Sequence record: PQ511150.1
Source: Escherichia phage NHEP29
DNA: 64,000 nt
Direction: 5' to 3' (one strand)
The notes below the pieces were generated by a model. It saw only the letters and a list, made by a program, of their open reading frames with translations, did no database searches and was not told where the DNA came from. The translations under genes and the position numbers were made by a program. How positions within the stretch are numbered: the stretch's first letter is position 1; each line of letters begins with the position of its first letter. Positions 21,508 to 21,877 of the stretch are shown here, in pieces.

Positions 21508-21877
21508 TATAAATTCTCTTTAAATGAAAATGCAGGACTTATTGACATTGCCTGCGCAAGCCCTCAAGGGGAACATAGGTTTTGGATATTTAACGACAGG
21601 ATAACCATAAACCCGTCATCATACCTTATAGCTCTTATCTGTTGCACACCGTTAGCTTAAAGGTTCCGGGTCCGATTTCTCGAGGATAAGATATATACTG
21701 ATGGATATATAGGCCTTGAGGCGTACTCCCGATTGGCCATCACCTCGGGGTAGCATGCACTTACCGCTATAAGAACCACATTCAAGAGGTACACCGTAAA
21801 ATTGTCGGGGCGGTACTTCTAAAACATACCGATTCGCAAATCGATAATCAGACAATTCGACGGCTCCTCGATTTAAC

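Follow-up and report, generated by a model that had tools for sequence, protein, structure and literature searches.

Evidence for a Conserved Structured RNA Element in the Spacer between rIII and 30.9 of T4-like Phages

Introduction

No phages have been studied more intensively than the T4-like group, whose genomes are generally taken to be almost wholly protein-coding, save for tRNAs and two stable RNAs. The latter are the species 1 and 2 RNAs, specified by rnaC and rnaD in the tRNA cluster of T4, which are 120–140 nt long, dispensable, and derived from a longer transcript. This study focused on a 64 kb stretch of the genome of the T4-like Escherichia phage NHEP29 (PQ511150.1; hereafter the window, to whose positions all coordinates refer) and, within it, on the spacer between rIII and a homologue of gene 30.9. 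The central part of this spacer very probably specifies a structured RNA of about 149 nt, here designated element B, which is found in T4-like phages of Enterobacterales. Element B resembles rnaC and rnaD in being phage-encoded, non-coding, of similar size and part of a T4-like genome, and in one phage type an rIII fragment is immediately followed by tRNA genes. It differs from them in sharing no similarity of sequence or structure, and T4 possesses rnaC and rnaD but lacks element B. In addition, rnaC ends in a tRNA-like T-arm, whereas element B has none. When the T4 region spanning the tRNA, rnaC and rnaD genes (69500–73500) was searched with the covariance model of element B (model R1, described below) with filters off, the best score was 6 bits and did not fall on rnaC or rnaD.

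A second point of comparison is provided by the PeSLs (promoter-early stem-loops) of T4-like phages, each a short stem-loop joined to an early promoter of sigma-70 type, with many copies in a genome (PMC4122927). In the T4/PST type, the defining features are a stem-loop plus the early promoter TTTACW-N17-TAYWAT, at many loci per genome. PeSL cassettes have been proposed to mediate the shuffling of modules in these phages (PMC4122927, PMC2839356). Like PeSLs, the elements described here are non-coding and small, and they lie as cassettes in the hyperplastic regions of T4-like genomes, where they are tied to indels and shuffling; the hairpins flanking element B (e.g., cassette Y) resemble the stem-loop part of a PeSL. 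Element B itself, however, is single-copy, is 149 nt long with seven helices and has no promoter match, which places it outside the PeSL definition.

Results

Fold of Element B

The spacer is an array of small, independently folding RNA cassettes on the gene strand, of which element B is the main one. Homologues were collected from IMG/VR, using a 16-nt core pattern, and from GenBank. A MAFFT alignment of 20 distinct copies, not fitted to any model, was passed to RNAalifold, which returned 44 pairs in seven helices, 17 of the pairs with compensatory changes, and from this covariance model R1 was derived. The model scores the window copy at 180 bits (21623–21775, minus strand) and detects no further copy in the 64 kb. 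The parts of the element are as follows (P, helix; J, junction or loop; double changes as counted in the 25 sequences introduced below).

21625–21773, minus strand: element B, a structured RNA of about 149 nt including the closing helix P1
21766–21773 with 21625–21632, minus strand: P1, 5′ strand CUUAUAGC pairing with GCUAUAAG, a perfect 8-nt inverted repeat
21763–21765 with 21712–21714, minus strand: P2, GGU pairing with GCC, invariant or wobble in all sequences
21755–21762, minus strand: J2/3 loop, AAGUGCAU, invariant in all 25 sequences save at one position
21715–21720, minus strand: J3/2 loop, CUCAAG, opposite J2/3
21721–21754, minus strand: P3, a long hairpin, double changes in 9 of 10 pairs of its main helix
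21692–21711, minus strand: P4 hairpin, UAUAUAU CCAUCA GUAUAUA, double changes in 4 of 7 pairs (e.g., U-A to C-G)
21685–21691 with 21633–21639, minus strand: P5, UCUUAUC pairing with GAUAAGA, double changes in 5 of 7 pairs; encloses P6, P7 and J7/5
21672–21683, minus strand: P6 hairpin with a GAAA loop, double changes in 4 of 4 pairs
21646–21671, minus strand: P7, with the 15-nt conserved loop GAACCUUUAAGCUAA, double changes in 2 of 5 pairs
21640–21645, minus strand: J7/5, GCAACA, nearly invariant

Together, the seven helices (44 base pairs) are arranged around a perfect four-way junction, in which P1, P2, P4 and P5 abut without linker nucleotides. P2 runs on through a conserved internal loop of 8 × 6 nt into P3, and P5 opens into a three-way junction with P6 and P7. 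Most members have GAAA or GUAA as the loop of P6; a few have UAAA, UAAU or a longer loop. Hardly any change is seen in the internal loop, the P7 loop or J7/5 across all members, the Slopekvirus copies included, and in these copies even the J3/2 pattern CUNANG is kept. Where J2/3 does vary, at a single position, the change is matched by covariation at one position of J3/2 (U-A vs. G-U).

Other tertiary contacts were considered and set aside. An all-against-all covariation scan, too noisy given the few lineages available, added no tertiary pairs beyond the J2/3–J3/2 pair. A GNRA tetraloop docking with an 11-nt receptor, prompted by UAUGG/CCUAAG-like strings in the Serratia copy, was rejected on two grounds: its alternative pairing is incompatible with the apical helix of P3, which covaries in the Slopekvirus and EcS1 copies, and the P6 loop of the Slopekviruses is itself not GNRA. 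Divergent members likewise lent no support to a pseudoknot pairing GGCC repeats with each other, or the UGCA string of J2/3 with that of J7/5.

Evidence for a Selected RNA Structure

The 20 initial sequences were extended to 25 by adding the copies of Erwinia phage Cronus, Enterobacter phage EnC15 and Escherichia phage EcS1 and two from Slopekviruses. Across this set, 98.6% of 1098 cells were paired and 30 of the 44 pairs showed double changes. None of 500 shuffled controls reached these values, and when the pairing partners were slid by 1–3 columns, 27–43% of cells were paired and at most 8 pairs showed double changes. The 25-sequence alignment was fitted to the model, and the unfitted MAFFT alignment gave the same helices. 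In P1, all five modelled pairs covary (UAUAGC/GCUAUA, UAAAC/GUUUA, CAUAC/GUAUG, AGUAG/CUACU); its sequence varies freely and the pairing is always kept. Of the three apical pairs of P3, counted separately, one changes on both sides.

The pairing is also strand-specific. Sixty G-U cells become A-C mismatches when the opposite strand is read, lowering the canonical fraction from 98.6% to 93.3%, and the functional strand is therefore the gene strand. Folding energies of single sequences were ordinary (z-scores of −0.5 to −0.95, both strands), for which reason thermodynamic stability was dropped as an argument, and the evidence for structure beyond chance is comparative, not thermodynamic. Element B is almost certainly a conserved family of structured RNAs, and it functions at the RNA level. 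A structured non-coding RNA had been one of three suggestions made for this spacer in a first-pass annotation, and the structure prediction with covariation analysis proposed there now strongly supports it, both for the seven-helix element and for a smaller pseudoknot adjacent to it.

Element B as a Portable Module

When the spacer was compared by BLAST with about 50,000 phage records, 995 of them matched, in pieces. T4 and many of its relatives matched both ends of the spacer without the middle, and phages of Klebsiella, Serratia and Enterobacter matched only the middle 135 nt (84–96% identity), with flanks that could not be aligned to those of the window. Alignment with T4 revealed a clean indel of about 153 nt, the missing stretch being exactly element B, from P1 to P1. 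T2, T6 and RB69 likewise lack it.

Element B occurs in 407 GenBank phage records, at one place per record. The carriers are T4-like phages of Enterobacterales, mainly of Klebsiella (161) and Escherichia (130), followed by Shigella, Enterobacter, Yersinia, Salmonella, Citrobacter, Serratia, Raoultella and Erwinia. Among 40 rIII loci from IMG/VR, 15 carry it with scores of 120–187 bits and the other 25 score nothing, so that there are no intermediates. Named carriers include JS98 (NC_010105), phiC120 (NC_055718), the BASEL phage AlbertHofmann (MZ501047) and the Klebsiella phages Mineola and KP179. It was also found in 14 metagenome contigs, all T4-like in size where long enough, and three different core patterns run over IMG/VR retrieved T4-like contigs only. 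In total, roughly 430 copies are available. No match was found in 5,426 E. coli genomes, nor did a 20-base core pattern match any of 185,579 bacterial and archaeal species, each represented by one genome. Eight matches to a second, looser pattern were attributed to chance, since none of them scored with the covariance model.

In Slopekviruses (e.g., K41P2, mtp5 and phiEap-3; about 20 records), the copy of element B is diverged (83–91 bits), is placed behind uvsY.-2, in the region convergent with uvsW, and shows compensatory changes in P1, P3, P5 and P7. There is no conserved open reading frame (ORF) downstream of it before a bidirectional terminator. This second locus shows that element B is not tied to rIII or 30.9. 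In two Slopekvirus loci (L137, 1550–1790, and L179, 9380–9560), about 200 nt more of non-coding sequence with GC-rich hairpins separates element B from the bidirectional terminator; the two have no common ORF in this stretch, which may contain other RNA elements.

Between the window and four other genera, the core of element B is 80–95.5% identical, compared with nucleotide identities of 62–79% for rIII, 30.9 and gene 31. The element is a portable module that is present or absent as a whole, is conserved above its neighbouring genes, and occupies another locus in the Slopekviruses. The comparison of related genomes called for in the first-pass annotation thus found element B, other small RNA cassettes or nothing at this site, and one phage type with tRNA genes beside an rIII fragment.

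Comparison with Known RNA Families

A search with the 4227 models of Rfam 15 at gathering thresholds gave no match anywhere in the window. With permissive filters and E-values up to 10, nothing overlapped element B in the window or at five homologous loci, so that the suggested covariance-model search ends with no known family matching the element. ARAGORN detected no tRNA or tmRNA in the window, the Slopekvirus loci or the T4-type loci. No published description of element B was found in a literature collection that is itself incomplete, literal sequence strings included in the search. As an RNA family, element B is assigned to no described family, and orphan structured RNAs of phages are a familiar kind of finding.

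Transcription of the Spacer

A consensus scan found neither a sigma-70-like promoter nor an intrinsic-terminator-like site within 21508–21877. The nearest candidate starts for a transcript running through rIII into the spacer are two consensus matches upstream of rIII:

22243–22250, minus strand: T4 late-promoter motif TATAAATA
22174–22146, minus strand: sigma-70-like site

In Citrobacter and Enterobacter phage types, element B begins 5–30 nt past the rIII stop codon. Given this spacing, the candidate promoters upstream of rIII and the lack of a promoter of its own, element B is probably co-transcribed with rIII, the simplest view being that it is made within the rIII message. The A/T-rich, −10-like strings before CGGCAAG were considered as an own promoter and discarded: they form the covarying 5′ strand of P1, and the scan was negative.

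Other Cassettes of the Spacer

Four further cassettes flank element B:

21776–21877, minus strand: cassette C, a long hairpin (CCGUCGAAUUGUC ... GACAAUUUUACGG) with two inner hairpins; inverted repeat I3
21574–21623, minus strand: cassette X, an H-type pseudoknot, UAUGAUG-GACGGG-UUUAUGGUUAUC-CUGUCG-UUAAAUAUCC-AAAACCUAU
21557–21574, minus strand: cassette Y, a short GC hairpin, GUUCCCC-UUGA-GGGCUUG
21532–21555, minus strand: cassette Z, a hairpin GCAGG-N14-CCUGC, followed by AUUUUCAUUU and then the 30.9 ribosome-binding region

Cassette C directly follows the rIII stop codon and is common to T4. Its fold energy is −26.7 kcal/mol (z = −1.7), and one inner hairpin appears by eye to be compensatory between the window and T4 (AUCGAUU/AAUCGGU vs. 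AAUGAUU/AAUCAUU), as do differences in the outer stem, also judged by eye only. In cassette X, the hairpin loop, which contains GGUUAUC, pairs with the downstream tail, past CGUUAAA. Across 17 sequences from different genera, 82.7% of its cells were paired, compared with 31–51% in slid controls, and the covariation score was 0.40 vs. ≤0.20 in controls; examples of the loop/tail pairs are UUAGUAGUU/AACUACUAA, UUGUGAG/CUCACAA and CAAGGUU/AAUCUUG. It has no Rfam match. Cassette X is present in T4 itself and also at loci L034 (T4-like), L051, L053, L054, L025 and L013. It lies upstream of element B in Klebsiella (Roth21-type) and Serratia phages, and downstream of it in the window and in the close relatives of T4. 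In every context of element B, cassette Y is found next to it, even at the unrelated Slopekvirus locus (GUACCCGAAAGGGGCUUG); there is no U-tract behind cassette Y and the terminator scan makes no call. Cassette Z, read from the sequence, is conserved in T4-type spacers.

The order of element B, X and Y differs between genera, and a spacer shuffled in this way fits the picture of hyperplastic regions built from small cassettes (PMC2839356, PMC4122927). The first-pass annotation had offered a regulatory or recombination site as another option. Recombination between cassettes would fit a mosaic reshuffled between genera, but the consensus scan gives element B neither promoter nor terminator of its own.

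Several observations concern comparable sites in other phages. A further hairpin, cassette D (CTATCATGCGTCAGCAAAAGGTTAGCTGTGTAAGTCTTGGTGG and variants), stands at the place of element B in five rIII–30.9 spacers without the latter (L029, L032, L035, L047 and L068) and may be another RNA module. In two IMG/VR contigs (L066, 3300045988_074297, and L067, 2974717474; positions 1–2350), a C-terminal fragment of rIII lies within a cluster of 12 tRNA genes, and the sequence past the rIII stop (TAATTTATTGGAGATT) is that of T4 up to the first bases of tRNA-Gln. This identity to T4 suggests that the tRNA region and the rIII spacer have recombined in the past. In loci of Klebsiella, Enterobacter, Citrobacter and Serratia types (L003, L012, L013, L019 and L026), a hairpin, UUCUCCAAAAUGGAAGA, lies just upstream of 30.9, preceded by a long variable hairpin (GGGAGC...GCUCCC). 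It overlaps the likely Shine-Dalgarno sequence of 30.9 (GGAAGA), and may mean translational control of this gene.

Neighbouring Genes and Base Composition

The records nearest to the window are those of phiC120, GADS24 and Mosigvirus ESh27 (96–98% identity). Local genes lie on the minus strand in the order found in T4, i.e., cd, 31.1-like, gene 31, rIII, spacer, 30.9, 30.8 and 30.7:

22939–23520, minus strand: cd
22641–22949, minus strand: 31.1-like
22251–22583, minus strand: gene 31
21878–22126, minus strand: rIII, lysis inhibition accessory protein (phrog_1457, E = 1e-41; labelled rIII in related records)
21328–21507, minus strand: 30.9 homologue, a basic protein of 59 aa and the gene downstream of the spacer (phrog_1427; synteny with 30.9 of T4, T6 and RB69)

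The genes 30.8, 30.7 and 30.3 each match Pfam families. Adjoining cd is an ORF of 330 aa (23520–24512, minus strand) annotated in the related phage ESh27 as DAHP (3-deoxy-7-phosphoheptulonate) synthase, an auxiliary metabolic gene.

The gap between rIII and the 30.9 homologue is exactly 21508–21877, i.e., 370 bp, and is non-coding. What the first-pass annotation had recorded of it was confirmed in part. Its gene labels (rIII and the 30.x genes) are correct by PHROG and Pfam matches and by synteny. The gap is unusually long, since a crude tiling of the window with ATG-initiated ORFs gave a median intergenic gap of 25 nt and only two gaps above 300 nt, of which the spacer is the second largest and, among the large gaps, the one highest in GC. 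The claimed GC enrichment is real, in that only 3.3% of 370-nt windows are as GC-rich, but the figure of 48–53% was too high. GC content was measured as 43.2% over the spacer and 46.4% over its central 153 nt, the part scored by the covariance model (21623–21775), against 37.8% in the window. No ORF over the spacer starts with ATG, the three that exist beginning only with TTG or GTG and matching no Pfam or PHROG family. The inverted repeats are present also, and include the perfect 8-nt pair 21625–21632/21766–21773, which is the closing helix of element B. The largest gap of the crude tiling (9572–10048; 477 nt, 32.5% GC) may merely contain small genes or genes with non-ATG starts.

Discussion

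Taken as a whole, the best explanation of the spacer, and one that is somewhat favoured, is an array of gene-strand cassettes co-transcribed with rIII, in which element B acts as an autonomous RNA. Element B would be made within the rIII transcript, both early and late, and in Slopekviruses within the uvsY.-2 transcript, and would act as an autonomous folded RNA rather than as a switch for one particular neighbouring gene. Perfect four-way junctions commonly stack coaxially in pairs. If P1 stacked on P5, and P2 on P4, the invariant internal loop of the P2–P3 arm (AAGNGCAU/CUNANG) would be set beside the invariant P7 loop and J7/5, and these loops together might make up a single recognition or active site. 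The conserved partner of this site might be a protein, of host or phage origin, or a small ligand. The role of element B would be accessory, since many close relatives lack the element and its location is hyperplastic, and candidate roles include host takeover and counter-defence. That element B is an autonomous, partner-binding RNA acting in trans is a tentative proposal, suggested by this model of the fold, and somewhat under an even chance. More speculative, and on balance unlikely, is the idea that it founds a new functional class of RNA, either a decoy or sponge that neutralises a conserved factor of Enterobacterales, or a self-cleaving ribozyme. As a decoy or sponge, its target might be a defence or RNA-processing protein, or a signalling nucleotide, and the cassette would spread horizontally.

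A number of points weigh against this interpretation. The 25-sequence alignment was fitted to the covariance model, and with so few independent lineages behind it, its cell counts overstate the number of independent events. Taken singly, the sequence has an unremarkable folding energy (z = −0.5). High conservation could partly reflect recent horizontal spread and not constraint, and an existing description is possible, given the incompleteness of the searched literature. Transcription, stability and processing of element B are deduced from sequence, and its partner, ligand and phenotype are all hypothetical. Lastly, a purely cis role is a serious rival, because the element always lies in a 3′ untranslated region (UTR) or between cistrons.

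As a cis-acting mRNA element of the 3′ UTR or intercistronic region, element B would work together with cassettes C, X, Y and Z in protecting against 3′ exonucleases, in RNase processing that parts rIII from the 30.x genes, or in tuning downstream read-through or translation. This would agree with its constant position directly downstream of a same-strand coding gene (rIII, or uvsY.-2 in Slopekviruses), with the missing promoter, with the company of other small structured cassettes, and with the placement of the Slopekvirus copy at the end of a transcription unit, ahead of a bidirectional terminator. On the other hand, a fold of 149 nt and seven helices with about 40 invariant unpaired nucleotides exceeds what a 3′ stabiliser needs, and the simple hairpins Y and Z are already present. 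Sister phages such as T4 lack element B and nonetheless express these genes, and the same core occurs next to unrelated genes, so that it is not tied to regulating rIII or 30.9. A cis role is accordingly judged rather unlikely, if by no means negligible.

Two narrower possibilities concern what the conserved core might do. A ligand-sensing, riboswitch-like aptamer for a metabolite or nucleotide signal would account for a variable, covarying P1 around a core of invariant junctions and loops. SAM-I aptamers, for example, are of similar size and have a covarying P1 that closes a conserved junction core. In the P5 region (CUUAUC...ACCCGGAACC...GGUGUGC...GAUAAGAG), some resemblance to SAM-I strings can be seen by eye. 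SAM-I has a single four-way junction, however, whereas element B has a four-way and a three-way junction, and no Rfam riboswitch model matched any of the six homologues in the permissive search. A riboswitch comprises an aptamer in a 5′ UTR and an expression platform, and no such platform is recognisable here: there is no terminator-like site, and the hairpin past P1 has no U-tract behind it and sequesters no ribosome-binding site. In Slopekviruses, element B is not upstream of a gene, and no conserved gene lies downstream. An aptamer of this kind is improbable.

Small ribozymes often occur in phage intergenic regions, co-oriented with the genes, and in the natural hairpin ribozyme a four-way junction juxtaposes a conserved internal loop and a second conserved loop region. 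By analogy, element B might belong to a new class of catalytic RNA, self-cleaving or otherwise, and serve to process the polycistronic transcript. Its perfect four-way junction would bring the conserved internal loop beside the conserved unpaired nucleotides of another arm, as in the hairpin ribozyme, and its co-oriented, intergenic place and very high nucleotide conservation would be in keeping with this. No Rfam ribozyme family matches it, however, and inspection by eye found neither the signature nucleotides of loops A and B of the hairpin ribozyme nor a core signature of the hammerhead, twister, pistol, hatchet or HDV types, so that a catalytic role would also be quite improbable.

That element B acts as DNA, as a PeSL-type shuffling cassette, a replication origin or a protein-binding site, might be read from the mosaic spacer with its changing cassette order and from the inverted repeat that bounds the element. 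It is hardly likely, since at 149 nt, once in the window and once per record, with no promoter match, element B is unlike PeSLs, and compensation in seven helices, the strand asymmetry of the G-U pairs and a loop that is mostly GNRA all point to a folded single strand as the target of selection. A decayed protein gene or mobile element, including the homing-endonuclease remnant of the first-pass annotation, or a small real ORF, as suggested by short coding sequences annotated over element B in several GenBank records and by a 45-aa GTG ORF with a hydrophobic N-terminus (21657–21794, minus strand), can be dismissed, because all six frames of every member contain stop codons (2–5 per frame in divergent members), variable columns show no third-position excess (16/20/17 over the three codon positions in the frame of the longest ORF), the two sides of helices change in compensation, Pfam and PHROG give no match, and the site holds no intact gene in any related phage.

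One consequence is a correction of annotation, since the 'hypothetical proteins' of 41–45 aa placed over element B in many GenBank records are probably spurious. Separately, several RAST-annotated records carry the label '1,4-alpha-glucan branching enzyme' under the matched rIII–30.9 stretch, which is probably an annotation error.

That element B went unnoticed might be explained by its absence from the four classic laboratory strains, T4, T2, T6 and RB69; it has more than 400 sequenced carriers, including many phages of Klebsiella, Enterobacter and E. coli isolated for therapy. Its interest lies in its place of occurrence, in its complexity and conservation, and in the natural carriers and non-carriers among close relatives, which make its function directly testable by cassette swap. 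Should element B prove to be catalytic, or to bind a factor of the host or of its defences, an RNA-based accessory function would be added to the T-even repertoire.

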